Shown: positions 3,342-56,237, counted from the first letter of the stretch. The stretch is DNA of 64,000 nucleotides from Alphaproteobacteria bacterium (GCA_045118155.1 JBGUXS010000078.1:443-64442), one strand, 5' to 3'. Translations and numbers: made by a program. The notes: generated by a model from the letters alone, not told the origin.

Positions 3342-3350
3342 GGGGAAAAG

Positions 3351-5522: not shown

Positions 5523-6064
5523 TGACGGAAGATTTTAAGTTTGAAGATGGTCTAGGACAGGATTATTGGATTCGTGAATTTCATAAAATTCCCTTTCCAG
5601 GAATGGAATTGTTTGAAGTAACTTTTTTTAGACGTATAGAAGGGGCCTATGTGGATAAACATCAGCGCTTTAGAGAAATGGCCGTTGATTTTCTAAAAGA
5701 TTTAGGGAAAGAGGAAGAAGAACTTTATGCTTTTGAATTTTCTGAGGCCGAAGTCGCTTTGATTAAAAAAGGTCGTCTACCAGAAAATTATACTGTCCAT
5801 TTAAAATATCCTTTAGAATACGGTTGTGCATTGATCCCAGAACAATTTGTTTTGATGCCTATTGCCCCTTATTATCGGGATATTAATACTTATATCTTCA
5901 GACAACTTATAACCGATGAAGGAATTAAAAAGCCCCATCACCTTTATGTTCCCACACCAACAGGGCGTATTTATAAACCTTATTCTGGGGATGCAAGTGG
6001 CAGCGGTGGGAAAAGTAATACTTCCCAAATGGCGGCTATGTTTAACCAGGGGCGGGGGCGTTAA
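5522..6064 (+). CDS. Hypothetical 180-aa protein; candidate T4SS substrate or toxin with a degenerate HNH-like motif
   Basis: Its start overlaps the virD4 stop (TAATG) and follows a GAGGA RBS. The segment YTVHLKYPLEYGCALIPEQFVLMP parallels the colicin-DNase/HNH pattern H-H-x3-P-x4-GG-x5-N-x5-P with substitutions. The tail is Gly/Ser-rich and ends in basic GRGR. Confidence 0.6.
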   Translation: MTEDFKFEDGLGQDYWIREFHKIPFPGMELFEVTFFRRIEGAYVDKHQRFREMAVDFLKDLGKEEEELYAFEFSEAEVALIKKGRLPENYTVHLKYPLEYGCALIPEQFVLMPIAPYYRDINTYIFRQLITDEGIKKPHHLYVPTPTGRIYKPYSGDASGSGGKSNTSQMAAMFNQGRGR

Positions 6065-6065
6065 T

Positions 6066-6524
6066 ATGAAATTAATACATGTTGTTTTAAAAGCTATTTA
6101 TAAAGATGCCGCTGTTGTTTTTAATCCTGTGGCTTTGACTGATGTTCAAAAGGCCTCTTTTGAAATTGTAAAAAATAAAGGGATTAAAATTCCTAATGAT
6201 TATGCTGCCTTTTTAACAGAAGTTGATGGATTATCCTGGAATGGATTGTATCTTTTTTCCTTAAATGAAAAGGAACGTCAAGATGGCGCTTTTGTGCACC
6301 CTGGCATTCTACAAACATACCATAAGGGCTTAAAAAATCCGATTTTTAAAAACAGGCTTTTATTAGGATACGGCCCTGAAGAAATCATTACATATCATGC
6401 GGGAAAAAAAGAATATCAAATCCTAAGTCAATATGATTACAGAATCCTAGTACGGCTTCCCCGCTTCTTTGATGTACTGTATCACTATACCCATGCTTTA
6501 TTTGAGGATGCCCCTAAGGACTAG
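6066..6524 (+). CDS. SUKH / SMI1-KNR4-like protein (candidate immunity protein)
   Basis: The ATG at 6066 lies 2 nt after the orf180 stop and follows a G-rich SD. GIKIPNDYAAFLTEVDGLSWNGLYLFSL and LLLGYGPEEIITYHAGKKEYQIL fit the SMI1_KNR4 pattern (lP.dY..FL...nG, then fg.d....i.yd). The longer track ORF starting at 5916 overlaps orf180 and was not used. Confidence 0.6.
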   Translation: MKLIHVVLKAIYKDAAVVFNPVALTDVQKASFEIVKNKGIKIPNDYAAFLTEVDGLSWNGLYLFSLNEKERQDGAFVHPGILQTYHKGLKNPIFKNRLLLGYGPEEIITYHAGKKEYQILSQYDYRILVRLPRFFDVLYHYTHALFEDAPKD

Positions 6525-9510: not shown

Positions 9511-9536
9511 GTGGCATTACCCCCTAATTTTTTCCT

Positions 9537-9565
9537 ATTATACACCTTTTTTTATTAAAAGTCAA
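9537..9565 (-). promoter_or_regulatory. Consensus sigma70 promoter (TTGACT-17-TATAAT) for the pilin-like gene
   Basis: The minus strand reads CTTGACTTTTAATAAAAAAAGGTGTATAAT, 26 nt upstream of the ATG at 9510. Confidence 0.7.
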
Positions 9566-9662
9566 GTATTTTTAAAAAATCCCCCCTCAATTCTCATTCA
9601 ATCACTTTCTGCTTGAGTTTTTTTAGAAAAGAACTATCCTTCAGGACAGGAAGAGGTGCTTT

Positions 9663-10118
9663 ATGTCATATATTACACGAACGCTTGGGGAAGACGAAAA
9701 AGTTCAAGTTGTCGCTAAATTACATTGGATTTGCTATGTTTATCCGACCCTACTTCTTTGCTTATGTTTATTCTGTGGTTTACTGGGATTAGGGGCTAAT
9801 CCTGTTTTCTTACTAATCAGCTTTCTGATTGGGCTTTTGGCTTTTTACCATTTTTTAAATTTAAACGCCATAGAAATGGTTGTCACCAACAGACGGGTTG
9901 TCTGTCGCAAGGGTATTATTGGGATTAAAACTTGGGAACTAAAAAACAATAAGGTAGAATCCATAGAAGTCAAGCAATCTCTAAAAGGGCGTATTCTAGG
10001 TTATGCAACCTTATGGTTTTCTGGCACAGGCACTTCCAAGGTGTGCTTTCAAAACATTAAAAATCCTTGGTCCCTAAAGAAAAAAATAGATTTGATCATT
10101 GGGAAAGACGAAGATTGA
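9663..10118 (+). CDS. Bacterial PH-domain (bPH_2 / YdbT-like, DUF304) membrane protein
   Basis: YITRTLGEDEKV, two TM helices, then VVTNRRVVCRKGIIGIKTWEL and IEVKQSLKGRILGYATL. Confidence 0.75.
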   Translation: MSYITRTLGEDEKVQVVAKLHWICYVYPTLLLCLCLFCGLLGLGANPVFLLISFLIGLLAFYHFLNLNAIEMVVTNRRVVCRKGIIGIKTWELKNNKVESIEVKQSLKGRILGYATLWFSGTGTSKVCFQNIKNPWSLKKKIDLIIGKDED

Positions 10119-29980: not shown

Positions 29981-31951
29981 ATGCATTACTTAACAGGGGA
30001 AGAAGTTTCTGTCACATCCTTAAAAACAATAGCCCAAGAATTTGGTTTTATGTTGTGGCCGCACCCCGATGATCCTTTCTTATTGCATAAAACACCCTAT
30101 CAAAGTTTTCCAGAAATGCTTTCTGTCCTTACAGATCATATTACAGAAAAAAAACTTAATTCCCTCTTCACTTTCCCTGTTTCTTTCATCTTAGATGCGA
30201 ATGCACAATCTGAATCCTTACATAACTTCTTTAAATATCAAGCCCGTAACCAATTGGATAAAACCATCGGTGTCTTGCTAACTTGCCCCGTTATTTACGC
30301 CTGTGATGTTGCGCAAATTTTTACCGAAGCCTTACATCAACGATTACACTTTCCTAGCACACGTTACAGTAATATTCATATGGCTATTCATGAAGCGCTC
30401 GTCAATGGTTTAGTGCATGGAAATCTAAAACTACCTAGTTCTTTACGGCAATCAGCTCGTGATTTCGTTGATTACGCCCGCATTGTTAATGAACGCTTAT
30501 TAGACCCTGCCTATGCTAATAAATCCATCAGTATTTGGGCTACTTGGAATACCTCTAGATTGGAAATTAAGATTCGGGACGAAGGGGCTGGATATACGGT
30601 TTTACCCCCCCATAAAAAACATGTGGCAGAAAAACGTTCTGGACGGGGGCTTTATCTAATTGCCGGAACTGCTGATTCCTGCACAATTGATGATTTTGGG
30701 CGAGAAATCACATTATCTTTTATTCTAAATAATCTAAACAACGAACAAGATATCGGGGTTTCTGAAAATGCGGCTTTACTGCATGATCCTGTAACCGATT
30801 TTTCGGATTGTCGTATTTTAATCATTGAAGATAACCCCAGTAATCAAATCTTGGTTTCACAACTTTTAAACGTGGTTGGAATTGGTCATATTGAAACAGC
30901 TCAAGATGGGGTTGAAGGCCTTGAAAAAGCATTCAGTATGAAACCAGACTTAGTCATTTTGGACATCACTATGCCCCGAATGAATGGATATGAAGTACTT
31001 CACCAACTCAGAACAAATCAAGATACGGCCTCTATCCCGGTTTTAATTCAAACGGCTTCTGATACACGGGCAGCACGGGATAAAACTTTTAGTGCGGGGG
31101 CAACAGACTTTATCACAAAGCCATTAAATCCTTTGGAATTTTTCTCTCGGATACGGGTACACTTAGAAAATAGATTACTTGTAAAACATCTTGAAACGAA
31201 ACTCGCTCAAATCAATGAAGAACTAGAACTTGCCCAAAAAATGCAAGAAAGTTTATTACCCCCCACGGAAGCACTTCAAGATATCAGCCAACGTTATCAT
31301 CTAGATATTTCTTATACGTTCTTACCTTCTTCCCATTTAGGGGGGGATTTCTGGCAAATTTTTCCATTGGCTAAAGATAAGGTCGCTTTTTATATTTGCG
31401 ATTTTTCGGGACATGGGGTAAGTGCTGCCATGAATACGTTCCGATTACACACCTTAATCGGGCAAATGGATATGACGGCATTGAAAAAGCCTTCCGAATT
31501 TCTTTTTATGCTTAATAATTCTTTGGTCAACTTGTTGCCCAGGGGACAATTTGCTACTTTCTTCTTTGGTATTTTAAACAAGCGACAAGGAACATTAACA
31601 TATGCTGGGGCCAGTTCGCCCTTCCCTATTTTGGTTAAGGACAACAAACCCTCTTTCTTAGATACTTCCGGGATGCCTTTGGGAATTTTAAAGGACGTTA
31701 CTTATAAAGATAAAAAGGTACCATTTTCCAAAGAAATGGGCATTTTACTATACAGTGACTCTTTCACTGAACAACAAAATAAAGAAGGAAATCGCCTTGA
31801 TTATGATGGTTTTATGAAAATGACTCAGACGTGTTTCTCAGAAAAAACATCTCAACAAGTCATTGCCCAAATCATGCAAAAATTTCATGAATTTTCTGAC
31901 ACCCCTAGTACCGATGATATTACGGCTGTCTATTTGAAAGGCCTCTTATGA
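29981..31951 (+). CDS. Fusion protein: RsbW/SpoIIAB-like HATPase kinase domain + response-regulator receiver + PP2C (SpoIIE/RsbU-type) phosphatase
   Basis: N-box HEALVNGLVHGN, G1 IRDEGAGY and G2 SGRGLYLIAG. REC: ILIIEDNPSN, DLVILDITMPRMNG and ITKP. PP2C: GGDFWQIF, YICDFSGHGVSAAM and TDDITAVYLK. Confidence 0.85.
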   Translation: MHYLTGEEVSVTSLKTIAQEFGFMLWPHPDDPFLLHKTPYQSFPEMLSVLTDHITEKKLNSLFTFPVSFILDANAQSESLHNFFKYQARNQLDKTIGVLLTCPVIYACDVAQIFTEALHQRLHFPSTRYSNIHMAIHEALVNGLVHGNLKLPSSLRQSARDFVDYARIVNERLLDPAYANKSISIWATWNTSRLEIKIRDEGAGYTVLPPHKKHVAEKRSGRGLYLIAGTADSCTIDDFGREITLSFILNNLNNEQDIGVSENAALLHDPVTDFSDCRILIIEDNPSNQILVSQLLNVVGIGHIETAQDGVEGLEKAFSMKPDLVILDITMPRMNGYEVLHQLRTNQDTASIPVLIQTASDTRAARDKTFSAGATDFITKPLNPLEFFSRIRVHLENRLLVKHLETKLAQINEELELAQKMQESLLPPTEALQDISQRYHLDISYTFLPSSHLGGDFWQIFPLAKDKVAFYICDFSGHGVSAAMNTFRLHTLIGQMDMTALKKPSEFLFMLNNSLVNLLPRGQFATFFFGILNKRQGTLTYAGASSPFPILVKDNKPSFLDTSGMPLGILKDVTYKDKKVPFSKEMGILLYSDSFTEQQNKEGNRLDYDGFMKMTQTCFSEKTSQQVIAQIMQKFHEFSDTPSTDDITAVYLKGLL

Positions 31952-32655
31952 TTCGGGTGTATATAGAGGCTCTGGACCCTAAAAAACCAACACCTCTTTC
32001 TGTGGATCACTATCATTATTTGGCCCACGTTATGCGTTTAAAAGCGGGGGACAGTTTTTTAGCGTTTAATCAACTTCAAGGGGAATTTTTAGCTGTATTT
32101 CAACCTAAAAACAAAAAAGAAGGTCATCTTTTACTACAAAAACAAACGCGTTTACCAGAACAACCTCGTCCGCCTGTAACACTTTATATCGCCCCTATCC
32201 GAAAAGAAAAAATGGAACTTGTGTTACAAAAGGCAACAGAAATTGGCGTAGAGATCATCCAACCTATTTTAACGAAACATACATGCCATCGGCCTTTATC
32301 AAAAGAACGGGCGGATATTATTATAAAAGAAGCGGTAGAACAATCTGAACGGCTGACATTACCTAATTGGCTTCCCCCTATATCTTTGGAAGAACTTCTT
32401 ATTAAACGTTCAACAGATATCCCTCTTTTTTACCTATCCGAACGAGGGGAAACGCAACATATTTCTTTGCCCGCCCCTCCTATAAGCTTTCTTATCGGAC
32501 CAGAAGGGGGATTTTCTAAGGAAGAAATTACCTTATTAGGTCAACAAAAAAACGCCCAAGCTATCAACCTAGGCGCTTTTATTCTACGGGCGGAAACAGC
32601 CGCTATTGCTATGCTAGCGACCTACCGCTTTCATAAACTGTTTTATACAGCTTGA
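31948..32655 (+). CDS. rsmE: 16S rRNA (uracil1498-N3)-methyltransferase
   Basis: HYLAHVMRLKAGD, KMELVLQKATEIGV, FLIGPEGGFSKEE and ILRAETAAIA. Confidence 0.9.
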   Translation: MIRVYIEALDPKKPTPLSVDHYHYLAHVMRLKAGDSFLAFNQLQGEFLAVFQPKNKKEGHLLLQKQTRLPEQPRPPVTLYIAPIRKEKMELVLQKATEIGVEIIQPILTKHTCHRPLSKERADIIIKEAVEQSERLTLPNWLPPISLEELLIKRSTDIPLFYLSERGETQHISLPAPPISFLIGPEGGFSKEEITLLGQQKNAQAINLGAFILRAETAAIAMLATYRFHKLFYTA

Positions 32656-32831
32656 CGTAGTTTTTCCTCACAGCAACACTTTTCTTCAACAAACCATATA
32701 CGATCTTCAAATTCGGATTTTTTCCCCTTATTGAATTGGCTAACAGGACGAAAATACCCCATAACCCGTGTCCAACATTCCACCGCTTGACGTTCATTAG
32801 AAAATTTTTCTAAAATTTGGTTATCTGTCAT
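32643..32831 (-). CDS. Glycyl-radical peptide of anaerobic ribonucleotide reductase, encoded as a separate 62-aa ORF
   Basis: TRVMGYFRPVSQFNKGKKSEFEDR matches the NrdD C-terminal glycyl-radical motif (RxxGY...N.GK..E...R). Its ATG overlaps the stop of the 689-aa nrdD ORF (ATGA). Confidence 0.7.
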   Translation of the reverse strand: MTDNQILEKFSNERQAVECWTRVMGYFRPVSQFNKGKKSEFEDRIWFVEEKCCCEEKLRQAV

Positions 32832-34897
32832 GCTTTGTTCTCCTTTTCTGCAAGTTCTTGACGTTTTTTTTCAATGAGTTCCGCATCACACTTTGGGCAG
32901 AACTTGTGTTCCCCACTAATATACCCATGCTTGGGGCAAATAGAATAGACAGGGGTAATAGAAACATAAGGAAGATGATAATTTTCTAATACCCGTCTAA
33001 TAAGTGATTTACAAACACTTGCTGAAGAAATCCGTTCATTCATATACAGGTGCAAAACCGTTCCCCCTGTATACTGTGTTTGCAATTCATCTTGATAATC
33101 CAACGCTTTAAACGGATCATCTGTGAAGTTCTGTGGTAATTGAGAAGAGTTTGTATAATAGGGGGCCTCTTTCTTTCCTGCTTGAATAATACCAGGATAG
33201 CGTTTTTGATCTTCTTTGGCAAAACGATATGTTGTCCCTTCAGCTGGCGTTGCTTCCAAATTGTACATATTTCCTGTTTCTGCTTGGAAATCCAGCATTT
33301 TTTCCCGAATATGTGTTAAAAATTCTTTAGCCATCGCCCGCCCTTTTTCCGAAGCAATGTATTCTTCATCATTAGTAAAGTTCCGAATCATTTCATTAAT
33401 ACCATTAACCCCAATCGTGGAAAAATGATTTCGGAATGTTCCTAAATATCGCCGTGTATAAGGATACAACCCCCGATCCATGTGCATTGAAATGGTTTTA
33501 CGTTTAATTTCTAAGGAAGTCTTCGCTAATTCCAGTAATTCATCCAAACGTTTATACAATTCCTCTTTCTTCCCCTTATACAGGTATCCCAAACGGGCAC
33601 AGTTAATTGTAACAACCCCAATAGACCCCGTTTGTTCTGCTGAACCAAATAAACCACCACCTCGTTTTTTCAATTCCGTCAAATCCAACCGTAACCGACA
33701 ACACATTGAACGAATATCTGAAGGCTTCATATCAGAACTAACATAGTTTGAAAAATAGGGTAATCCATATTTAGCCGTCATTTCAAATAACAATTCCGTA
33801 TTTTCAGAATCCCATGGGAATTCATTTGTAATATTGTATGTCGGGATAGGGAAAGTAAACGGCCGCCCTTTGGCATCCCCACTTCCCATAACTTCTAAAT
33901 AAGCCCTATTAATCATATCCATTTCTTTTTGCAGATCACCATAAACAAAATCTTGTTCCACCCCCCCAATGATAGGGTGCCGATTCTTCAAATCTTCAGG
34001 GCAATTCCAATCAAAAGTTAAGTTCGTAAAGGGTGTCTGTGTCCCCCAACGCGATGGTACATTCAAGTTAAAGATGAAGGATTGCATCGCTTGTTTTACT
34101 TCTTCATAAGGTAATTTTTCAATTCGTATAAATGGTGCTAAGTACGTATCCACAGAAGAAAACGCCTGTGCCCCAGCCCATTCATTCTGCAAAGTCCCCA
34201 AGAAATTAATCATCTGGCTAAACGCAGAAACAAGGTGTTTTGGCGGTTTAGATTCTGTCTTATTGGGAACCCCATTAAAACCTTCTTCTAATAAAACCCT
34301 TAAGGACCACCCTGCACAATACCCACTCAACATATCCAAATCATGAATATGATAATCCCCATTTCGGTGAGCTTCCCCAATTTCTGGCGTATACACGTGG
34401 CTCAACCAATAATTGGCCACCACCTTTCCTGCCGTATTTAAAATCAATCCCCCTAAGGAATATCCTTGATTAGCATTTGCGTTCACCCGCCAATCTGACC
34501 GATCTAAATATTCATTAATAGAAGCCACCGCATCAATAACCGTTTTCTTATCATTCCGCATTTTTCCGCGTTGTTCACGGTACACGATATAAGCCCGGGC
34601 AGTTTTGTAATAATTAGAGGAAATTAAAACCTGTTCAACCACATCTTGAATTTGCTCAATATTAGGATAAACCCCGAAAGCAAACCGATGCTTTAAAACC
34701 TTAATAACTTGTCTTGTTAATAACCACGCTTCATCTTGACCGAATTCAGCCGTTGCTTCCCCAGCTTTCAAAATAGCAACCATAATTTTAGTCACATCAA
34801 ACGGATACTGTTGCCCATCCCGTTTAATTACATAGCTCAACGGACTAATATCAATGGTTACATTTAGCGGCTGGGCTCCTGTCAAAACTTGCAACAT
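32828..34897 (-). CDS. nrdD: Anaerobic (class III) ribonucleoside-triphosphate reductase, large part lacking the glycyl-radical segment
   Basis: ATP-cone (VIKRDGQQYPFDVTKI), catalytic core (SMCCRLRLD, GSIGVVTINCARLGY, NLEATPAEG) and Zn-ribbon CPKHGYISGEHKFCPKCD. It then stops after a K/E-rich tail. Confidence 0.9.
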   Translation of the reverse strand: MLQVLTGAQPLNVTIDISPLSYVIKRDGQQYPFDVTKIMVAILKAGEATAEFGQDEAWLLTRQVIKVLKHRFAFGVYPNIEQIQDVVEQVLISSNYYKTARAYIVYREQRGKMRNDKKTVIDAVASINEYLDRSDWRVNANANQGYSLGGLILNTAGKVVANYWLSHVYTPEIGEAHRNGDYHIHDLDMLSGYCAGWSLRVLLEEGFNGVPNKTESKPPKHLVSAFSQMINFLGTLQNEWAGAQAFSSVDTYLAPFIRIEKLPYEEVKQAMQSFIFNLNVPSRWGTQTPFTNLTFDWNCPEDLKNRHPIIGGVEQDFVYGDLQKEMDMINRAYLEVMGSGDAKGRPFTFPIPTYNITNEFPWDSENTELLFEMTAKYGLPYFSNYVSSDMKPSDIRSMCCRLRLDLTELKKRGGGLFGSAEQTGSIGVVTINCARLGYLYKGKKEELYKRLDELLELAKTSLEIKRKTISMHMDRGLYPYTRRYLGTFRNHFSTIGVNGINEMIRNFTNDEEYIASEKGRAMAKEFLTHIREKMLDFQAETGNMYNLEATPAEGTTYRFAKEDQKRYPGIIQAGKKEAPYYTNSSQLPQNFTDDPFKALDYQDELQTQYTGGTVLHLYMNERISSASVCKSLIRRVLENYHLPYVSITPVYSICPKHGYISGEHKFCPKCDAELIEKKRQELAEKENKA

Positions 34898-35056
34898 ATA
34901 GTCTTTCCTTTCTTAAAAATTACTAAATATAGTTGTTTTACTCCTTTTTTTCTTTTTCTAGTCAACCGTTTTTCTCCCCCAAAGTCAATAGCTATTTTAA
35001 AAATAAAACAACTTTTTTTTAAACTCATTGAAAAATAGAAATATTTTTTAATGAAT

Positions 35057-35758
35057 CTATAACAAGCCCTCACGCATCAAAGATGTTACGGATTCTTTTC
35101 CTATGATTAAACTATCAAAAATATCTATATGCAATGGACGTAAAACAGCCTTTATTAGGCGGGTAGCTGTAATATCTTCTTCCGAGGGAATGGCCTCCCC
35201 TGACGGATGATTATGCACCAAAATGATATGACTAGCCCGTTCCACAATAGCCCGTTGTGCAATAACTTCCACAGGGATATGAACCATACGTTTTCCCCCT
35301 TTTTGAATAAGTTCATCTTTCAACAGGTACAATTGGGCATCCAATATCAATAAATGCAGTTCTTCCTCTGTTTTGTGGGCATAATTTAAATGGCAATAAT
35401 CCACTAGATTATCCCAATTTTCTAAAATGGGACGTTGAATCACTTCTAATTTTTTAGCCCGTAACGTCAATTCTAAACAAAACTTAAAAAAGGCCGCAGA
35501 TGTTTCTTGTAATCCTTTTATACTTACTAATTCTTCAACAGGGGCTTGCAAAATTCCCAAAATACTTTGAAAACGATCCATCAGTCGTTTTGCAATAGGG
35601 CGTACATCACATCTAGGGATCACAAACATCAAGCCCAATTCAACAAGATCTGTATCAGAAAGGGCCTCTGGTAACGTCAAAAACCGTGTCCGTAACTTCT
35701 GCCGATGTCCCGTATGGATATACCCAGCATCTTTGGTGGTCTTTGACGTTGTTTTCAT
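35057..35758 (-). CDS. radC: RadC-family JAB-domain protein
   Basis: HhH region, then HIILVHNHPSGEAIPSEEDITATRLI (JAMM motif). Confidence 0.88.
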   Translation of the reverse strand: MKTTSKTTKDAGYIHTGHRQKLRTRFLTLPEALSDTDLVELGLMFVIPRCDVRPIAKRLMDRFQSILGILQAPVEELVSIKGLQETSAAFFKFCLELTLRAKKLEVIQRPILENWDNLVDYCHLNYAHKTEEELHLLILDAQLYLLKDELIQKGGKRMVHIPVEVIAQRAIVERASHIILVHNHPSGEAIPSEEDITATRLIKAVLRPLHIDIFDSLIIGKESVTSLMREGLL

Positions 35759-36567
35759 TACCTTTCTTCCGCTTGCAGTATATTATTTTTAGAAGGATTT
35801 TTAACAAAGTTCAAAATATCTTGGACATATATATTCTTTCCTAAAGTAGGATCTTCTTCTACCTGTTGTATACGTTCAACAAATGTTGTTCCTTCCTTTT
35901 TGGTAAACAACGCCTTATACGCTTTTTGCAAAACGAAGATATCTTCTTTAGACATACCACGACGTTGCAACCCAATTAAATTGAGCCCTGCTAAATGCGA
36001 AGGGATTCCCCCTAGGGCTATCCCATAAGGAATCACATCCCGTGTAATTCCACACATAGCCCCTATCATCGCACCTTTCCCAATTCTGGTAAATTGCAAA
36101 ACCCCTGCCATCCCCCCAACAGTCACATTATCTTCTACTTTTACATGACCAGCTAAGCTAGCATTATTACTCATAACAATATTGTTTCCTAATTTGCAAT
36201 CATGAGCAATGTGGCTATACGCCAAAAAGAAATTATCATTTCCAATACGGGTAATATTATCATCTACATCTGATCCCCCGATGTGAACAGTAACCCCTTC
36301 TCTAAAAGTGTTTCTATCCCCAATAATTAACAAACCATCCGTTGCATCACAACGTTTATGTTGATGCATTCCCCCAATGGTTGCGAACTGGTACACCGTA
36401 CATCCAGAACCCATCGTTGTATGCCCATCAATCACCGCATGAGAAATTACTTTACAACCTGCCCCCATTTTAACAAAAGGACCTATCGTACAAAAGGGCC
36501 CTATTTCAACATCTTCTGCAAGTTCTGCTTTTGGATCAACAATACTAGTAGGATGAATTTTAACCAT
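35758..36567 (-). CDS. lpxA: Acyl-ACP--UDP-N-acetylglucosamine O-acyltransferase
   Basis: IHPTSIVDPKAEL, hexapeptide repeats and GLNLIGLQRRG. Confidence 0.93.
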   Translation of the reverse strand: MVKIHPTSIVDPKAELAEDVEIGPFCTIGPFVKMGAGCKVISHAVIDGHTTMGSGCTVYQFATIGGMHQHKRCDATDGLLIIGDRNTFREGVTVHIGGSDVDDNITRIGNDNFFLAYSHIAHDCKLGNNIVMSNNASLAGHVKVEDNVTVGGMAGVLQFTRIGKGAMIGAMCGITRDVIPYGIALGGIPSHLAGLNLIGLQRRGMSKEDIFVLQKAYKALFTKKEGTTFVERIQQVEEDPTLGKNIYVQDILNFVKNPSKNNILQAEER

Positions 36568-36576
36568 AATCCCTCC

Positions 36577-37050
36577 TTATGCTTTTTTCAACATCATAGC
36601 ACTAAAGACACACTGTGAAACAAGCTTTCCATCCACATAAGCTTGTCCCCGGAATTTAAACACATTTCTAACGACTTGTTCTTTTGTTACCTTCATTTCC
36701 AAAACATCCCCTGGGACAACAGGTTTTCTAAATTTCGCATCATCTAATGTCATAAAGTACACCATCTGATTATAGCGTTCTTCTTCAGGTAACATCATCA
36801 AGACAACAATTCCTGCAGTTTGTGCCATTGCTTCAATCTGCAAAACCCCTGGCATAACTGGATTTTCTGGGAAATGGCCTTGAAAAAAAGGTTCGTTAAT
36901 GGTAATATTTTTTACACCCGTTCCACTAACCCCAGGAACAATATCTTTAACTCTATCAATCATGATAAACGGATACCGATGCGGCAGCATCTTTAAAATG
37001 GTATCTATTCTAATTTCTGGTAACGTTTCTTCCATAGCCGTATCTGTCAT
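36577..37050 (-). CDS. fabZ: 3-hydroxyacyl-ACP dehydratase
   Basis: [37 protein letters not shown]. Confidence 0.95.
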
Positions 37051-38126
37051 TTATGACTCCTTTTCAATACCCAAAGTTTTATTTTATCTTTCCACGAAAG
37101 GGGGACCCCTTGTTTCTTTTCCCCTAATTTTTGGATAAGAAGTTGCTGGCGTACCCAATCCAGCTTAGGCTGCGCCGGAGATCCCAAAACCGTCATACCT
37201 GCTGGGACATCCCGCATCACCCCAGATTGTGCCCCAATTTGCGCTCCTGTCCCAATATTTAAGTGTCCTGCAAAACCAACTTGTCCCCCAACGGTTACAA
37301 AATCACCAAATGTACAACTGCCCGCAATACCCACTTGTGCCACAATAACGCAACACCTTCCTAATTTTACGTTATGAGCAACTTGAACAAGATTATCAAT
37401 GCGTGTTCCAGAACCTATTTCTGTATCTCCCATAGCCCCGCGATCAACGGTGGTACAGGCGCCAATTTCAACATCATCTCCAATCTTAACGCGCCCCAAT
37501 TGAGGGCATTTTGTGGGACCAAATTTTGGGGACATCGCAAATCCAAAACCATCCTGCCCAATCATTGCCCCAGGATAAATATAAACTTTATTTCCCATAT
37601 CACAATGCGAAACAACCGCATTAGCCCCAATAATACACCCAGCCCCCATATGGACCCCAGCTTGAACAACGGCATTAGCTTGAATATGGCATCCTGAACC
37701 TATAACAGTATCCGCCCCCACAAAGGCCCCAGCATCAATTTGACATCCTTCCCCAATCTTGGCTGTGGGATCAATAAATGCCTTATCTGAAATTCCCGGA
37801 GTTATTGAATAAGGATAAAACGCCTGAGCTAACAAGCCATATGACCGATGAGGATCAACAGCTATTAAAGCTATGGTTCCTTCCGGCACCAAAGACAAAA
37901 ACTTTTCTGGGACAATCACCGCCCCAGCTTTTGTTTGTTTTAGGCTTTCTCGCACTGAAGGAATAAAGGCCCAGGAAACATCATCAGGGCCTGCTTCATC
38001 TAATGAAGCAACATCTTGCATAACCCTTCCCAAAGCATTGGTATCTGAAACTTTAACATCTGCGATACGGGCAACTTCTTCTAATGTAAAAGGACCCTTT
38101 TTATCAAAAAAACGTTTATCGGCCAT
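37047..38126 (-). CDS. lpxD: UDP-3-O-acylglucosamine N-acyltransferase
   Basis: N-terminal LpxD domain followed by long left-handed beta-helix hexapeptide repeats. Lies in the lpxD-fabZ-lpxA gene order. Confidence 0.92.
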
Positions 38127-38140
38127 TTGTATTTTTATCC

Positions 38141-38713
38141 TTATGGTAAATGAAATTGCGTGGGATCAGGATAAACCACCTTAATTTCTTTTTTATTTAA
38201 AATTTTAATAACATCTTCTGTCATATCATAATGCTTTCCTGTATAAACCAATGTCCCCCGAAGCAAAATGATATCATACCCCTTTTTATCCCCGATCTCT
38301 CGGATAATATTTACCGCCGCTTCGTCCACTTCCTTGGAAGCAACTTGTGTGGCCTGCATAATACGTTGAGCCTCTTCTTGATAACGGGCTTGTAATTTTT
38401 CCATTTTCTTTTGCAAAGCCACTAATTTATCTTGGCTAGGCTTTTTACTCTTCCTTAAATCTTGTTCTTCTTTATCTAAAACCGCCTTTTCGGCCATTAA
38501 CTTTACTCGCCAAACATCTTCATATTTCTTTTGTTCCGCGGCAATTGTCTGATAAGCCTTTGCTTCATCCCGTAATTTTTGCCCATCCAAAATGCCAATC
38601 TTCATCCCACTTGGACGCATAAAAAGGAAAAGAATAAATGCCCCCAAGACAATTAAAATGATTTTGAAATAACGCCGAACAAATGGCAGAATTTTTTGTG
38701 CTGACTGTGTCAT
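38141..38713 (-). CDS. skp: OmpH/Skp periplasmic chaperone
   Basis: Signal anchor and a coiled-coil K/E/Q-rich body. Located between bamA and lpxD. Confidence 0.8.
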
Positions 38714-40977
38714 TAGAATCCCTTTCCAAAGTTTAACCTAAACACTCTGCGATTATCCTCTTTTGCTTTTTTGATTGGGAAAGCAAAATCAAGATTAATC
38801 GTTCCCATCGGGGATTGCCAAACAATCCCTGTTCCAACAGAAACACGAACATCATCAGAATATACCATTGTATTCGGGTCATAATCATCCGGTTTCCCTA
38901 AGATACCAGCGTCCGTAAACAATTTTCCTTTAATTCCAAGTTCTTTAGGAAGCCCTAGTGGGAATGTTAATTCCATAGAAGCTGTCGTATACCACAAGCC
39001 CCCTAAGAAGTCATCACCTTGTTTAGCACCAACACCACCATATTCAAACCCACGAAGTAATGAATCCCCTAAAATATACCGGTTATTGATACGGACTGAT
39101 TGCCCCCCCAATCCCCAAATTTTTCCTGCATCACCCCGTACAGAGAAAACAACATCGTCCATCACCGGGAAGTACCGGATTCCCATCACATTAACACGGA
39201 AGAATTTTGTATCTCCACCGACACCGGCAAAATCTGTGCCAATTGATGTATAATACCCTTGGGTCGGATCCATTTTATTATCTCGTTTATCATAATACAA
39301 TTCTTGGCCAATCATAGAAGTTGAATAAGAACCGGCTTGTCCTTTAATATAAAGTGAAGCATCTTCTTTAATATCAGTGACTTTATCTCGTTTTAATGTA
39401 TAGCGCACAACCTGTCCTAAATAGTCATTGTAATGCCACCCAAAAGATAAGACCCCACCAGTACTCCGTGATTTATAGGAACTGTAATCTTCATTATCTT
39501 CTGTTGTATGGAACAATGAGATTCCCGCTGAAACATTTTGATCCATAAAATAAGGATCACTTAGATTAATTTGATATTGGGTTTCACGTTGCGACCACAT
39601 AACATCAAATCCAGCGGTTTTACCTGTCCCTAAGATATTACGCTCTTGAATACCAGTTTCAAACAACATCCCATCATAAGATGACCATCCAATCCCAACA
39701 TTAAAGGCCCCTGTTGATTTTTCCACAACATCCAACATAACATCCGTTTTGGCGGCACTTCCTGAAACAGGAACAACCTTAAAATCGGCCTTTTCAAAAT
39801 ACCCTAAATTATCCACCCGTTGTTTAGATAGCTGAATACGGGCAGGACTGTATGCATCTCCTTCTTTGAATCTCAACTCACGCCGAACAACTTTATCCAA
39901 TGTCCGCGTATTTCCCCGAATGTCAATCCGGTTTACAAACACCTTTTCTCCTTCAGCAACATTGAAAACAACTTGAACCGTTCTGTCTGTCGGGTTTGTA
40001 TTCAACATGGGCTGTACATCAGCAAAAGCATACCCGGAATTTGAAAATTTATCTAACAAATTAGAGATACTGGCCTCTATTCTATCGGCATTGAACCAGT
40101 TTCCTTCTTCCACTTCCAACAAATCCATCAGTTCAGAAGTATCCCCTTGGTATTCCGGTAAATTAACTTGGATTTTGGGCTTTGCAAATTTATACCGTTC
40201 TCCTTCGGTAAGATCCATATTCACAATAAATGCTTGCCGATCAGGGGTTAATTCCGCCCATGCCTTATTCACTTTAAAATCAACATATCCATGGTTCAAA
40301 TAAAACCGCCGTAATGCTTCTTGGTCATAATTCAACCGATCTGGGTCATATGTATCTGTAGAGGCAAAAAAACGGTACCAAGCGTATTCTTTACTAATCA
40401 AAGCGGCTTTTAAATCATCTGCTTTATAGGCCTTATTTCCAATGAAGTTTATTTTTTTAATAAACGTTTGATCCCCTTCGGTAATTTCATAGATAACATC
40501 TACCCTATTTTCATCTTTCTTAATAATTTTAGGAACAATTGTGGCCCCATAACGACCATGGCGTTGATATAACTGTAACATCCGTTCCACGTCATTTTGC
40601 ATTTTAGCCTTTGTCCAAACAGCCCGCGGTTTTAATGAAATTTCTGGACGTAACATCGTATCTTCTAGCTTTCGGTTCCCTTCAAAGAAGAGCTCATTGA
40701 CAATAGGATTTTCCTGAACTTGAACCCTAGCAATCCCTTGATTCATCGTTACTTTTACTTCAGAAAAAAGGCCTGTATCAAATAATGTCTTAACGGCCTC
40801 GTCTAAATCCGAACTTGATAGCACTTTGCCCTTTTGCCAATTTAAATAGTTCATAATTGTTGCATCTTCTATTCTATTAGTTCCCGTAATAGAAACCGCA
40901 TTCAAAACCTGATCAGCGAAGACCGAAGTTGATAACAATAAACTAGAACAAACAAAAGTGTAATACAGTTTTTTCAT
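38713..40977 (-). CDS. bamA: Outer membrane protein assembly factor BamA
   Basis: Signal peptide MKKLYYTFVCSSLLLSTSVFA, five POTRA-like repeats, a C-terminal beta-barrel and a terminal F. The start at 40977 makes an ATGA overlap with rseP; the track ORF extends to 41061. Confidence 0.93.
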   Translation of the reverse strand: MKKLYYTFVCSSLLLSTSVFADQVLNAVSITGTNRIEDATIMNYLNWQKGKVLSSSDLDEAVKTLFDTGLFSEVKVTMNQGIARVQVQENPIVNELFFEGNRKLEDTMLRPEISLKPRAVWTKAKMQNDVERMLQLYQRHGRYGATIVPKIIKKDENRVDVIYEITEGDQTFIKKINFIGNKAYKADDLKAALISKEYAWYRFFASTDTYDPDRLNYDQEALRRFYLNHGYVDFKVNKAWAELTPDRQAFIVNMDLTEGERYKFAKPKIQVNLPEYQGDTSELMDLLEVEEGNWFNADRIEASISNLLDKFSNSGYAFADVQPMLNTNPTDRTVQVVFNVAEGEKVFVNRIDIRGNTRTLDKVVRRELRFKEGDAYSPARIQLSKQRVDNLGYFEKADFKVVPVSGSAAKTDVMLDVVEKSTGAFNVGIGWSSYDGMLFETGIQERNILGTGKTAGFDVMWSQRETQYQINLSDPYFMDQNVSAGISLFHTTEDNEDYSSYKSRSTGGVLSFGWHYNDYLGQVVRYTLKRDKVTDIKEDASLYIKGQAGSYSTSMIGQELYYDKRDNKMDPTQGYYTSIGTDFAGVGGDTKFFRVNVMGIRYFPVMDDVVFSVRGDAGKIWGLGGQSVRINNRYILGDSLLRGFEYGGVGAKQGDDFLGGLWYTTASMELTFPLGLPKELGIKGKLFTDAGILGKPDDYDPNTMVYSDDVRVSVGTGIVWQSPMGTINLDFAFPIKKAKEDNRRVFRLNFGKGF

Positions 40978-42068
40978 CCAAAAATCCTTTGCACAATTCG
41001 TGGTATATCTAATACCAGAGTAAACACAAGAAGTCCCCCTAACACAGCACAACCTACCCAAACAAGTACTGTCTGTAAGCGAACCGACACAGAACGACCT
41101 GTCAGCCCTTCCACAAGATACATTGCAAGATGTCCCCCATCCAACAATGGTATCGGTAATAAATTCATAAAACCAACTGCAATTGAAATATTAACAATAA
41201 ACAATAAAAGGGTTAATCCCCCACCTAATAAAGCATCCCCAGAAGCTTCAGCAATTCCCAACGGACCCCGCATTTCTTTTGCTGAACGTTTATGTAAAAT
41301 CATTTGTTTTAAATAAACAACCATATCCCATGTTGTCTGTCCTATAATCTGTCCTGAACGTCCTAAAGCCGCCAGCAAAGAAAACTTCTTTTGGCCAATT
41401 TCAACCTTAGGGGATGACTTAATTCCCAACATAGGGGTTCCTTCAACTTCTTCAAGTTTCGGGATGATAATGTCTTCTATTTTTCCTTCCCGCTGAACTT
41501 GAATAGCTAGCGGTTGCCCTTTTTCTTGTGCCAAAACAAAACGTAAAATATCCCGATAGCTTTCAACCCCTTTTTGATTCATTGTCAAAATACGATCCCC
41601 AGAAACAATCCCCGCCCGTTCAGCCGGCAACCCTGGCATCACTTCTCCAACAACAGGGGGAACAATTGCTTCCCCAATACACAAGAGCATCCCAGCCAAT
41701 ACAATCCACGCAAAAAAGTAATTCATCCCTGGTCCCGCCGCAATAATCAGTGCCCGTTGCCACCGGGGTTTAGATAAGAACATCTTTTTACGTTCAGACG
41801 CGGGAATTTTGGTATCTTTTTGGGTCATACTGGCCGCATCCCCGTCCCCTAACATCTTCACATATCCCCCTAGAGGAATCGCCCCGATTTTCCAAAGAGT
41901 TCCCTTCTTGTCTTTTCTGGAAAACAATGTCTTTCCAAATCCAATGGAAAATTCCTCAACCTGAACACCACAGCATCGGGCCACAAAAAAATGTCCCCCT
42001 TCATGAACAAGGACAATGATAGATAAGACAACAACAAAAGCCGTGAGATAAATACAGGCTTGTATCAT
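40974..42068 (-). CDS. rseP: RIP zinc metalloprotease RseP (site-2 protease)
   Basis: HEGGHFFVARCCGV (HExxH), a PDZ domain and NLLPIPLLDGGH. The start at 42068 makes an ATGA overlap with cdsA. Confidence 0.9.
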   Translation of the reverse strand: MIQACIYLTAFVVVLSIIVLVHEGGHFFVARCCGVQVEEFSIGFGKTLFSRKDKKGTLWKIGAIPLGGYVKMLGDGDAASMTQKDTKIPASERKKMFLSKPRWQRALIIAAGPGMNYFFAWIVLAGMLLCIGEAIVPPVVGEVMPGLPAERAGIVSGDRILTMNQKGVESYRDILRFVLAQEKGQPLAIQVQREGKIEDIIIPKLEEVEGTPMLGIKSSPKVEIGQKKFSLLAALGRSGQIIGQTTWDMVVYLKQMILHKRSAKEMRGPLGIAEASGDALLGGGLTLLLFIVNISIAVGFMNLLPIPLLDGGHLAMYLVEGLTGRSVSVRLQTVLVWVGCAVLGGLLVFTLVLDIPRIVQRIFG

Positions 42069-53517: not shown

Positions 53518-53805
53518 ATGCGGGAACCTATTTTAAAAGCGGTCAGTATGCCGGCGCGTATTTTATGGGCGCCGTCGGTTCCGGCGTTGTTAAACATGGT
53601 TTGTCAATTACCTTTCATGTTGTTCTATGCGGGACAAGGGGGCAACCCTTTGCTATTCATGGGAACTATCATCGGGGTTCATGCCTTAATTGCTCTTTAT
53701 GCCGCGAAAGAACCTCATTTATCTAATATGTTCAAAGCCCAAGGTCCTTTCTTTAAGAAAAGTTCACAAATGTATACCTCATCAGGAAGAAAATACGCCC
53801 CATGA
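53518..53805 (+). CDS. virB3: Type IV secretion system protein VirB3
   Basis: ~96 aa. ILKAVSMPARILWAPSVPALLNM (L.ka.tRP...GvP pattern) and two TM helices. ATGA overlap with virB4. The track ORF starts earlier, at 53497. Confidence 0.8.
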   Translation: MREPILKAVSMPARILWAPSVPALLNMVCQLPFMLFYAGQGGNPLLFMGTIIGVHALIALYAAKEPHLSNMFKAQGPFFKKSSQMYTSSGRKYAP

Positions 53806-56237
53806 ATCAAACAGATGTTTTCGCCCTTATTTTACAAAATGCTTCCTCTACGGGGTTACTTATTGCCTTGTTAGGAGTATTAGCACTTGTTTTTGTCATG
53901 GTTGTATTTGTGACCTCCTTAGGAAATATGTTACTTCCCAAACCAAAAGAAACCCTTGTTTCTGATTTTCTTCCTTTTTCAAGGCTAGACCCAGATGGTG
54001 CCACCATTTACATGCGTAATGGTACTTTGGCTCGTGTTTTTGAATTAACAGGAACGGATACCACTTTAGCAAGTGATATTGAACGTAAAGCCTTAATGGA
54101 AAAACGGCAACAATGGATTGATTCACTAAGTGAATTAGAAATTATTTGCAGGGTTATTACGATTCGTGAAAAAATTCCTTTAGCCGAAGAAACACTACAT
54201 CCAGATAATCCTTTGCTCAATAAAGTGTCAGAACTTTGGTTGAACAGTTTACACCGTATTTTCAGAAACAAACATTACCTAATTCTTTCCGTTAATGATC
54301 GTAAGGATGCCATTAATGATTTAATTCAGGCAACAAATGCGACTCTTTCTATTTTAGATGTTTATCATCCTATTCTTATTTCTGAAAAAACCCCAGATAA
54401 ACATCAAGACAAAAGCCCCTTTTGGGTTTTTTCACAACTTGTCAGCCCCGTATCAAACCCCAAACCCATTGTAGGCTTTGAAAAAGGGGAAGAACTTAAT
54501 TCCTTTTTAACGTCTGACTATATCCACTTCACAAAAGATGAAGGGATTATCCGTTTCTTTTCTGGGGATAGGGAAAAATTAGCCATTTGTATCGGTATTC
54601 GTAAGCCTGGGGATTTCATGGATGAACAAATGGTTGCCCGTATTTTAGGAATTGATTGTGAAGTTGTTATTACACACAATATCCATGCTATTCCAAAAGC
54701 AAAAGGAAACCTGTTAATGATTCAACAACGCCGTATGGCTTACTTAACAAGTTTTTCTGAAAGTGTACGTTCCCAATATAATACCGCCATGCAATTAATG
54801 GATCCTTCTGATATTAATTCACAAACCCTTAATGAATATTCTATGTCTATTATGGTTTATGGGGAATCTAAGGAAGAACTTGTTTTTGGACAACAGGAAG
54901 TTGAAAAAATATGCCGACTTTACGGGGTGACCCCTGTGCGAGAAGGTTGGATTACTCAAGCTGTTTTCTTTTCTCAAATTCCCTCTTATGAAGTATATCC
55001 ACGTACATACTTGTATTTATCGCGGGTAGTGGCGTGTTCCATTTGCATGGATAAAACAACTGAAGGCCGGCAAAAATCTGATTGGGGGCCTGTGCCTATT
55101 TCTTACTTCCGGACTATTACGGGGACCCCTTACGCTTTCCAATTTCATGTAACAGAAGAACCCTATGCTGTGGCACATACAGCCCTTATTGGTCCAACGG
55201 GACAAGGGAAAACAACCTTATTTTCATTTTTAGCAGGCCAATCTTCCCGTATTCCAGATTTACGGACTTATTTCTTTGACCGTAACAATGGGGCCAAAGT
55301 TTTTGCTTTATTACAAGGGGCTCCTTATGTGCGGTTTGATGGGGGGGACAATGCTGTTGCCTTAAATCCTTTCTTTATGCCAGATTCCCCTGAAAACAGG
55401 GCATTTTTACGATCTTGGTTACGCTCTATTACTGGCTGTACAGATGCTTTTTCCGAAGAAGAAATTGCCCGAGCCGTTACAACAGCTTATGACTATTTAA
55501 AACCAGAAGAACGTCTTTTGAAGAACTTGTATAAAAGCTCTTTTTCCTTAAACGGAGATATGCGCCGTGAACTAAAACGTTGGGTCAGTGATGATCAATA
55601 TGGTCGGATCTTTAATGCCGAAGAAGATAAATTAGATATTGATAACCGCTATACTGGTTTTGATTTTACGCATATTTTCCAAGATGGGACGTTGGCTCCT
55701 GCTGTCATCAGTTATATCATGTACCGCATTCATGAATTAGCTAGTTTAAAAGGGACCCCCTCGTTAGTGATGATTGATGAAACGGCCCCTATGTTAGAAC
55801 ATCCTATGTTCCGAGACAATTTCATTGTAGGCCTTCGGGAAGGACGAAAGAAACGACAAGCATTCTTATGTGCTTTCCAGCAACCTCGCTTTTTAGATGA
55901 AAACGGTTTAGGGGATGTGATTCGTGGCCAATGTCAAACCATTATTTTCTTTAGAAATTTACAGGCAACCCCCGCGGATTATGAATCTTGGAATTTAACC
56001 CCAAGTGAACTAAACTTTATTCTAGGAAAAGAATTTATTGATCATAAATACGCCATCCTTGTCAAACGGCCCGCTGTTAATGAATCTGTTATCTTAGATA
56101 TTAATTTGGGGGGATTAGGTCCCTACTTAAAAATTTATTCTTCTGGGAATAAAAATGTGGCCTTAGTTGAACGTCTTAGTCATGAACTAAAATATGCTAA
56201 AGATATCCTACAACAATATCTACAGTTATCTGATTAG
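53802..56237 (+). CDS. virB4: Type IV secretion system ATPase VirB4
   Basis: 811 aa of CagE/TrbE/VirB4 architecture. Walker A LIGPTGQGKTT and Walker B-like SLVMIDETAPML. Confidence 0.92.
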   Translation: MNQTDVFALILQNASSTGLLIALLGVLALVFVMVVFVTSLGNMLLPKPKETLVSDFLPFSRLDPDGATIYMRNGTLARVFELTGTDTTLASDIERKALMEKRQQWIDSLSELEIICRVITIREKIPLAEETLHPDNPLLNKVSELWLNSLHRIFRNKHYLILSVNDRKDAINDLIQATNATLSILDVYHPILISEKTPDKHQDKSPFWVFSQLVSPVSNPKPIVGFEKGEELNSFLTSDYIHFTKDEGIIRFFSGDREKLAICIGIRKPGDFMDEQMVARILGIDCEVVITHNIHAIPKAKGNLLMIQQRRMAYLTSFSESVRSQYNTAMQLMDPSDINSQTLNEYSMSIMVYGESKEELVFGQQEVEKICRLYGVTPVREGWITQAVFFSQIPSYEVYPRTYLYLSRVVACSICMDKTTEGRQKSDWGPVPISYFRTITGTPYAFQFHVTEEPYAVAHTALIGPTGQGKTTLFSFLAGQSSRIPDLRTYFFDRNNGAKVFALLQGAPYVRFDGGDNAVALNPFFMPDSPENRAFLRSWLRSITGCTDAFSEEEIARAVTTAYDYLKPEERLLKNLYKSSFSLNGDMRRELKRWVSDDQYGRIFNAEEDKLDIDNRYTGFDFTHIFQDGTLAPAVISYIMYRIHELASLKGTPSLVMIDETAPMLEHPMFRDNFIVGLREGRKKRQAFLCAFQQPRFLDENGLGDVIRGQCQTIIFFRNLQATPADYESWNLTPSELNFILGKEFIDHKYAILVKRPAVNESVILDINLGGLGPYLKIYSSGNKNVALVERLSHELKYAKDILQQYLQLSD

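Follow-up and report, generated by a model that had tools for sequence, protein, structure and literature searches.

The stretch of DNA analyzed here, hereafter the window, comprises 64,000 nucleotides (nt) from an alphaproteobacterial genome (GCA_045118155.1 JBGUXS010000078.1:443-64442). On its minus strand lies the gene for a class III ribonucleotide reductase (RNR), NrdD, in the form of two open reading frames (ORFs). The first encodes a body of 689 amino acids (aa), the second a 62-aa peptide with the glycyl-radical motif. The initial annotation had described this division as well as a 13-nt overlap between the small ORF and the convergent rsmE gene; the overlap is evident from the coordinates, and the division is borne out by the sequence and by the way in which the two ORFs cover a single Pfam profile.

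The two chains and their predicted fold

The body gene (32828-34897, minus strand) encodes the catalytic chain of a class III RNR. It matches positions 2-529 of the 562 in Pfam profile PF13597 (NRDD) with 588 bits (gathering score 26.2), positions 4-663 of the 684 in NCBIfam NF006126 with 1133 bits (cut-off 548), and TIGR02487 with 480 bits (cut-off 326). The chain has an ATP-cone, an alpha/beta barrel, an MCCR thiyl-radical finger loop, and a Zn ribbon, and is devoid of a radical glycine. The ATP-cone, which is the allosteric activity site, spans residues 22-111 (34565-34834, minus strand; PF03477, 76.7 bits). The finger loop is recognizable in the sequence as M398-C399-C400-R401 (33695-33706, minus strand), the double-Cys type bearing the thiyl-radical cysteine, and S397-M-C-C-R401 is invariant among 22 aligned relatives; MGCR and MCCR classes of the motif have been defined previously (PMC9669993). 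The Zn ribbon, located by alignment, is a Cys3His variant, C654-P-K-H657 ... C667-P-K-C670 (32888-32938, minus strand), that resides wholly on the body. C654, H657, C667, and C670 are all invariant in the alignment of relatives, and the ribbon corresponds to the structural Zn site of the PcNrdD glycyl-radical domain. The body stops 19 residues past the ribbon, its C-terminus reading ...CPKHGYISGEHKFCPKCDAELIEKKRQELAEKENKA*, and the RVxGY motif is not on this polypeptide. Its K/E-rich tail (residues 671-689; 32831-32887, minus strand) is collinear with the linkers of single-chain relatives and would be the first half of a former linker.

The proposed small subunit (32643-32831, minus strand) has the sequence MTDNQILEKFSNERQAVECWTRVMGYFRPVSQFNKGKKSEFEDRIWFVEEKCCCEEKLRQAV, contains TRVMGYFRPVSQFNKGKKSEFEDR, and ends in CCCEEKLRQAV. 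It matches positions 530-560 of the NRDD profile with 34.4 bits, which exceeds the gathering score, so that the two ORFs, placed one after the other, cover the family profile from its beginning to its end (2-560 of 562). NRDD was the only family returned by a Pfam scan of the 62-aa ORF at E<=0.1, with no match to PF01228, the Pfam glycyl-radical domain of the pyruvate formate-lyase (PFL) type. An NCBIfam scan gave NrdD models only, all under their cut-offs, and no dedicated model, and a phmmer search against the sequences of the PDB gave no meaningful match, the query being too short. What the peptide retains is the radical hairpin (ERQxxExW-TRVMG*YFRP), the helix after it, and a Cys-rich tail. 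Gly25 (32757-32759, minus strand), the predicted radical site, lies in the motif T21-R-V-M-G25-Y-F-R-P29 (32745-32771, minus strand). Comparison of 33 diverse members shows no variation from T21 to P29 or at R14, E18, N34, G36, K37, S39, E40, R44, F47, and E49. The tail includes C52-C53-C54 (32670-32678, minus strand, assigned from the sequence), which is probably flexible in the structural model described below, where the predicted local distance difference test (pLDDT) score is 58.

Two further points concern the cysteines of this subfamily. Its Zn ribbon is of the form CxxH...CxxC with an invariant His, as opposed to the four cysteines of the textbook ribbon, and a near-universal extra Cys occurs on the peptide 3 or 5 residues ahead of TRVMGY. 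We considered the latter as the fourth Zn ligand; that it is essential is not supported, given the invariant His in the ribbon and the lack of the Cys in a few members (L025 and the fused P0464 and P0500).

The body can be aligned with solved NrdD structures as far as residue 710 in P. copri (8p23), where the radical Gly711 comes next, and residue 612 of 651 in T. maritima (4coi). AlphaFold2 (AF2) was used to model the two chains as one, with the peptide appended to the body, from an alignment of database proteins in which fused relatives, bodies, and peptides were separate rows. The model has a pLDDT of 84.2 and a predicted TM-score (pTM) of 0.77, and its target-normalised TM-scores (TMt) against solved class III RNRs are up to 0.76 for T. 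maritima, 0.73 for T4, and 0.72 for P. copri. At the junction, where pLDDT is 92-97, helix 668-685 of the body tail is followed by a loop (686-691) that contains the break (689|690) and by helix 692-698 at the N-terminus of the peptide. A beta hairpin (707-712 and 715-718) has Gly714, equivalent to Gly25 of the peptide, at its tip, and leads to helix 724-732 and the low-confidence Cys tail. According to the model, body and peptide are compatible with the canonical fold, cut in a loop; association in trans is outside its reach. The glycyl-radical domain of P. copri NrdD is itself mobile in the solved structure and moves out of the barrel (PMC11226230), which makes a detachable version mechanistically plausible.

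Conservation and origin of the split

The two genes of the window meet at the sequence ATGA (32828-32831, minus strand), in which the TGA stop of the body (32830-32828) overlaps the ATG of the small ORF (32831-32829). A Shine-Dalgarno (SD) sequence, AAGGAG (32840-32845, minus strand), is found 8 nt upstream of this ATG inside the codons for the K/E-rich tail. Relatives of the peptide are encoded by at least 586 stretches in a scan of one genome per GTDB species, from which the best 80 loci were read. The ATGA junction is also present in a relative with 97% identity (L085) and in L039. Most relatives instead have a 10-40 nt spacer with an SD, and in 48 loci with adjacent body and peptide genes the distance from body stop to peptide start can be anything between -4 and +197 nt (median 28). 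Across 74 related loci, an AGGAG-type SD stands at canonical spacing ahead of nearly every small ORF. The initial annotation had pointed to the ATGA overlap and to a pattern of translational coupling; the overlap itself is there, but ATGA is not a conserved trait. Judging from these sequences, the conserved feature is independent initiation, of which the coupling through ATGA in the window appears to be one variant.

The same 48 loci bear on whether programmed recoding, by a -1 frameshift or stop read-through, yields a fused 750-aa NrdD and makes the two-ORF appearance misleading. In the window, the frame of the small ORF is open for 39 nt upstream of its ATG, overlapping the end of the body, which would in principle allow a -1 shift to join the chains, and the same potential exists in 25 of the 48 loci. 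However, stops intervene between the chains in 23 of them, the peptide is in the frame of the body in only 10 and in a different frame in 38, the gaps reach the full length given above, and the usual body stop is TAA. The SD is conserved, whereas no conserved slippery site was seen. With variable frames and spacers, intervening stops, and SDs of their own, no single conserved recoding event could fuse the chains, and there are in addition orphan and phage peptide genes without any body to fuse with. Recoding is therefore very improbable as an explanation. A split caused by a mobile element (intron, intein, or homing endonuclease gene), as in phage nrdD and nrdA, was also considered and rejected, since the spacers lack the length for such an element and contain nothing besides an SD.

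Recurrence in other assemblies and species addresses a more trivial explanation, namely that an error in sequencing or assembly at 32828-32831 breaks a continuous frame. This is a general possibility for any metagenome-assembled contig, and nothing more specific speaks for it. At least four independently assembled samples (ERZ27256887, SRR21150938, JGI 3300028886, and ERZ1029115) contain exactly this 689-aa product with the 62-aa ORF and the convergent rsmE after it, the 97% relative has the same ATGA junction, and dozens of species are split with different junction sequences. The chance of such an error is, in our judgment, close to nil.

The split recurs in hundreds of related genomes. The 120 best homologues of the body (81-100% identity) come from uncultured Alphaproteobacteria of guts and rumens and are 681-689 aa long, with the exception of one fragment and a few N-terminally extended sequences; every one of the 120 ends 13-20 residues past CPxCD. 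For the peptide, 517 homologues were detectable, the best 120 of which are all 46-80 aa long. An exhaustive profile search over 1.84 billion cluster representatives gave 4387 representatives at E<=1e-3, the best 150 measuring 54-153 aa without exception. Among the 149 of these that were retrieved, 148 start with Met and 141 contain RxxGY, and the two with a Zn ribbon are fragments of fused proteins. Stand-alone peptides of 50-90 aa make up more than 140 clusters at 50% identity. Both the stop point of the body and the stand-alone peptide are retained down to 66% body identity.

Strong purifying selection acts on both genes. Between the window and L085 (97% amino-acid identity), the bodies differ with a dN of 0.020 and a dS of 1.64, corresponding to an omega (dN/dS) of 0.012 with synonymous sites near saturation, and the peptides with a dN of 0.037 and a saturated dS. 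Over the 74 loci, the peptide as a whole has a dN/dS of 0.25, which falls to 0.12 when just the 34-codon core is considered. These values bear on the second reading offered by the initial annotation, an early-stage pseudogene in which a recent nonsense or frameshift mutation truncated a single-chain nrdD and left the 62-aa ORF over. Taken alone, the window does resemble a disrupted gene, and nrdG is not adjacent. Against this reading stand the identical stop point and stand-alone ORF over the range of body identity just given, an omega of about 0.01 at a dS of 1.6 or more, and the dedicated SD of the small ORF. Moreover, the relatives, in which the initial annotation had proposed to look for the same split, share one architecture rather than an assortment of independent lesions. 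We reject decay on these grounds and regard it as extremely unlikely. The only decayed-looking copy seen is L048, where the body (region about 7900-9930) has a C-terminal part that is out of frame, with a tail reading ...LTYLGRTQILPNL, while the peptide and nrdG are intact; this may be a real frameshift or an assembly error.

Fused relatives of the two chains are found in Chthoniobacteraceae, Ca. Riflebacteria/Ozemobacteraceae, Desulfovibrio, Burkholderiales, and Propioniciclava, and are 61-68% identical to the body of the window. They are collinear with body plus peptide, with nothing gained or lost at the junction in the alignment, and the cut falls within a linker whose length varies in the fused forms (about 3-45 residues), between the Zn ribbon (CxxH...CxxC) and the ERQxxExW-TRVMGY block. 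What had initially been annotated as an insertion of about 40 residues is, by this alignment to single-chain NrdD, the variable linker of the subfamily. Nor is the Cys-rich tail, taken at first for an unusual trait of the small ORF, specific to it: C-terminal tails with Cys, CC, or CxC occur in most split peptides and also in fused relatives (..FFEEDKCSA, ..KCCASAG) and are hence a subfamily trait. The Cys tail shared by the fused and split members of the MCCR subfamily (P0438-P0508) lies about 10 residues past the radical-domain helix, and resembles the pair of redox cysteines at the C-terminus of class I and II RNRs.

In a midpoint-rooted neighbour-joining (NJ) tree of bodies, for which the loci were picked by peptide similarity and four full-length fused forms were included, the split forms all group together, to the exclusion of the four fused forms. 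This topology is consistent with a single ancient fission, after which the split form was inherited vertically and in some cases transferred. Members of the split clade are several alphaproteobacterial groups of gut and rumen, Holosporales metagenome-assembled genomes (MAGs), Ca. Scatocola, and cultured organisms, namely Pleomorphomonas diazotrophica, P. koreensis, Pleomorphomonas sp. NRK KF1, and Telmatobacter bradus DSM 23630. The last of these, an acidobacterium with a complete genome, branches beside Pleomorphomonas. Seen from the fused side, split bodies account for 25 of the 120 closest relatives of a fused Riflebacteria NrdD, some of them on contigs of 2-4.8 Mb.

The operon and stand-alone copies of the peptide gene

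The order body-peptide-nrdG is found in about 46 of the 80 related loci, and the third gene is a bona fide nrdG (TIGR02495, 195-211 bits; cut-off 131). Sites resembling NrdR boxes, with no more than 3 mismatches to ACACWATATWTWGTGT, precede the body start by about 39 nt in about 35 of 51 loci, sometimes in tandem 31 nt apart. The window has a degenerate site of this kind, CAACTATATTTAGTAA (34920-34935, minus strand), 38 nt upstream of the nrdD start, with 4 mismatches to ACACWATATWTWGTGT; the better boxes of its relatives occupy the same -39/-40 position.

The peptide gene also occurs by itself. Twenty of the 80 genome loci are orphans, with neither a body nor nrdG within 10 kb, and at least five MAGs have an operon copy plus an orphan (L003 and L005 are on one 121-kb contig). 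Nine chromosomal orphans were read for upstream elements (L001-L004, L007, L011, L012, L016, and L030; small ORF near 10000 or 3000-3500 of the locus). All nine are preceded by promoter-like elements consisting of an A-rich tract and TTGACA/TTGACT, and TATGAA/TATCAA is present in all four that were checked for it. NrdR-like boxes lie upstream of 4 of the 20 orphans, against 0.25 expected from the background rate, and form a tandem 31 nt apart in L007; no FNR-type boxes were found upstream of the orphans. The orphan copies retain the invariant radical motif, and omega is similar for orphan-orphan pairs (0.28) and operon copies (0.24). In three orphan loci, rnhA (RNase HI) directly follows the peptide gene (L034:2854-3312, L052:10175-10615, and L054:10204-10638), and one MAG orphan (L041, 10001-10177) adjoins a phage major head protein gene. 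A radical-SAM (S-adenosylmethionine) gene near L001 and L003 was examined as a dedicated activase and rejected, as it matches only RlmN, weakly, and no activase of a glycyl radical enzyme.

Phages carry the gene as well. A scan of IMG/VR gave 98 confirmed stretches, of which the best 80 loci (L086-L165) were read. Fifty of these 80 are orphan peptide genes of 50-93 aa without nrdD or nrdG within 6 kb, and about 25 are a fused phage NrdD (606 aa) with nrdG. The viral orphans have an SD in most cases and an NrdR box in none, and are on contigs of 4-72 kb, many of 30-60 kb. Their viral context was established by PHROG scans of the neighbouring genes. The copy in L093 (IMGVR_UViG_3300012983_000068; peptide 6001-6183) is accompanied by genes for DNA polymerase, a Cas4-type exonuclease, and a Holliday-junction resolvase, that in L101 by terminase and portal, that in L107 (peptide 5971-6153) by tail, integrase, and primase, that in L119 by tail fibre and methyltransferase, and that in L124 by an integrase. 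The phage peptides are 53-87% identical to the nearest operon-type peptides and belong to host-clade-specific types (11, 34, 4, and 1). The phage peptide gene is a candidate auxiliary metabolic gene of 180 nt.

A probable two-subunit enzyme and its possible function

Taken together, the conserved split, purifying selection on both genes, separate SDs, and shared architecture argue for the first reading of the initial annotation, and we consider it very probable that the two ORFs encode a functional two-subunit class III RNR that arose when, on one occasion in the distant past, a single chain was severed in its linker, past the Zn ribbon and ahead of the glycyl-radical loop. In such an enzyme, the peptide would be translated on its own, in the window coupled through ATGA, and its Gly25 would be converted to a glycyl radical by an NrdG activase encoded elsewhere in the genome. 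The peptide hairpin would then insert into the barrel of the body beside Cys399/400, like the covalently attached domain of single-chain NrdD. The two halves of the old linker, now the helix at the end of the body and the helix that opens the peptide, may help, along with the segments after them, to hold the chains together.

Several points weigh against this interpretation. nrdG is not in the window: the CxxxCxxC radical-SAM motif is found in no ORF of at least 80 aa over the 64 kb. The lack of an adjacent nrdG, noted in the initial annotation as a departure from the usual operon, holds for the window but is peculiar to its lineage, since about 46 of the 80 related loci have the gene next to the peptide; an adjacent nrdG is likewise lacking in one Holosporales MAG. 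Judging from the intensity of purifying selection on both genes, nrdG is presumably encoded elsewhere in the genome. The structural model is an artificial fusion with fused relatives in its alignment, and the single origin of the split is provisional, coming from a quick NJ analysis of loci selected on the peptide. Finally, any advantage of peptide exchange, in the sense of a spare part, is something we infer; a neutral fission is conceivable, as is a different role for the orphan copies.

More speculatively, since the radical glycine resides on a small protein of its own, a peptide cleaved by oxygen could be swapped for a fresh one without remaking the body, and second chromosomal and phage-borne copies may feed the same body. 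Action in trans is made plausible by the distance between bodies and orphans, by the two copies in some MAGs, by the promoter-like elements and NrdR boxes of orphans, and by the phage copies. By analogy with known spare-part proteins, we tentatively propose, at somewhat less than even confidence, that the peptide is an exchangeable 'radical cartridge': the cell would retain the costly 689-aa body and swap the cleaved peptide alone, and NrdR-controlled and phage copies would supply extras. Phages of gut and rumen alphaproteobacteria carrying the 180-nt gene alone could in this manner take over the NrdD body and NrdG of the host for the supply of deoxyribonucleoside triphosphates (dNTPs).

Alternatively, the two-subunit enzyme could be real and its fission neutral, with the peptide tightly and permanently bound and never exchanged and the orphan and phage copies being, for example, decoys, inhibitors of host NrdD or NrdG, or non-functional duplicates. 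Split RNRs without a known exchange function do exist (class II NrdJa/NrdJb and NrdA of phage Aeh1), and the phage peptides could just as well sequester NrdG. On the other hand, the orphans keep the invariant radical motif at the omega given above, some have NrdR boxes, the phage copies track host-clade-specific peptide types, and the copy in L093 is located within a DNA-replication module, as expected of genes that boost dNTPs. There is also the precedent of YfiD and T4 Y06I for PFL (PMC8683613). We regard neutral fission as a real possibility, though one that we lean against.

The closest parallel to an exchangeable peptide is indeed GrcA/YfiD of E. coli and Y06I of T4, which are likewise small stand-alone carriers of a glycyl-radical loop with cellular and phage versions (PMC8683613). 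In both systems, activation is presumed to be by the radical-SAM activase of the enzyme itself, and action to be in trans on a large body. Their radical peptide is encoded apart from the enzyme, as it is here by the orphan copies, while the copy in the window adjoins the body. The initial annotation had drawn this analogy from the window, and the existence of orphan and phage-borne peptide genes makes it stronger than could be seen from there. There are nevertheless clear differences. The GrcA family (IPR011140; PMC8683613) is of PFL type, whereas the present peptide is of NRDD type (PF13597) with no PFL-domain homology found, and at about 60 aa it is half the size of the 127-aa GrcA. Furthermore, PFL keeps its own glycine, which GrcA replaces after cleavage by oxygen, whereas the split NrdD body has none. 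The peptide would therefore be an obligatory subunit, and only the orphan and phage copies would be 'spares'. Oxygen-cleaved NrdD or PFL is similarly a large body without a functional radical loop, the very state that a replacement peptide would complement; in that case, however, the scission is chemical and occurs at the glycine, whereas here a genetic boundary lies about 25 residues upstream of it.

The single-chain NrdD of the NF006126 subfamily (Ca. Riflebacteria/Ozemobacteraceae, Desulfovibrio, and Chthoniobacteraceae), 61-68% identical over the body, shares the ATP-cone, MCCR loop, CxxH...CxxC ribbon, ERQxCExW-TRVMGY block, and Cys tail, and has nrdG downstream. It differs in being one polypeptide of 697-765 aa with an uninterrupted linker. 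The nearest genetic analogue, class II NrdJa/NrdJb of Pseudomonas aeruginosa and Thermus phage phiYS40, is likewise divided into two consecutive ORFs, which are a few nt apart and functional as a complex (PMC9669993, citing Crona 2015; PMC3653736). The split NrdD conforms to this type of fission in having consecutive collinear ORFs and no mobile element, but both of its pieces are class III NRDD. NrdJa/NrdJb, in contrast, is a class II enzyme that uses adenosylcobalamin (AdoCbl), and its C-terminal piece bears a Zn finger, an IscU-like domain, and redox cysteines rather than the radical site; orphan or phage genes for the small piece only are not described for it. Split domains have been regarded as possibly distinct to class II RNRs (PMC9669993). 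Active enzymes also result from split RNR genes in phages, such as NrdA of Aeromonas phage Aeh1, which is in pieces, and nrdD interrupted by an intron, intein, or homing endonuclease (PMC3653736). In these cases an inserted element is the cause of the split, and it is either spliced out or the pieces assemble via element-derived domains, whereas the split described here appears ancient, cellular, and free of elements (gap -4 to 197 nt).

Glycyl radical enzymes have been described with the radical glycine on the catalytic polypeptide, the only known exception being GrcA/Y06I for PFL. According to recent papers, formate lyases are the only enzymes with known spare-part proteins (PMC13450708, 2026), and YfiD and Y06I are the only ones validated. 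The same papers raise the question of whether other glycyl radical enzymes have them too, with the remark that such proteins 'may exist' (PMC8683613). The full-text literature that we searched, outside which most subscription journals lie, contains no description of a split NrdD, a spare part for NrdD, or a phage glycyl-radical peptide. A large and apparently ancient clade of class III RNRs with the radical glycine on a separate peptide of about 60 aa is, to judge from that literature, new and contradicts the one-chain textbook picture. The extra stand-alone peptide genes in chromosomes and phages are likewise new, and bear on the open spare-part question of the field. Should the cartridge proposal be true, NrdD would become the first glycyl radical enzyme other than a formate lyase with a spare-part system, and the phage gene would rank among the smallest auxiliary metabolic genes known. 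In either case, the enzyme offers a natural two-piece system for studying substrate recognition by NrdG, entry of the radical loop into the barrel, and the handling of oxygen damage, and it is testable in the cultured Pleomorphomonas spp. and Telmatobacter bradus. There are also consequences for annotation: the label that RefSeq gives to the peptides is either 'hypothetical protein' or, misleadingly, 'anaerobic ribonucleoside-triphosphate reductase' (WP_101289109.1, 65 aa; WP_420238858.1, 58 aa), and that of UniProt is 'Uncharacterized protein'. No curated family covers the peptides, and the phage copies are invisible as auxiliary metabolic genes.

As for the surroundings of the locus, the convergent rsmE (31948-32655, plus strand; PF20260, PF04452), which we regard as context rather than part of the system, shares 13 nt at its 3' end with the small ORF and stands where relatives carry nrdG. 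The order radC-nrdD-peptide-rsmE is maintained in the 97% relative L085. None of the ten largest other ORFs of the window encodes another RNR; they specify PNPase, AcrB, RNase E/G, PBP2, DnaE, type IV secretion proteins, and similar products. Directly upstream of nrdD is the conserved cluster bamA-ompH-lpxD-fabZ-lpxA-radC (35057-41061, minus strand). On the other side, the start of rsmE is overlapped by the stop of a gene (29981-31951, plus strand) for a 656-aa RsbU-like protein with an anti-sigma-kinase-like HATPase_c_2 domain, a response-regulator receiver, and a SpoIIE/PP2C phosphatase. The type IV secretion genes of the window include those for a VirD4/TraG-like coupling protein (3351-5522, plus strand; PF02534, 186 bits) and a VirB4/TrbE-like ATPase (53802-56237, plus strand).

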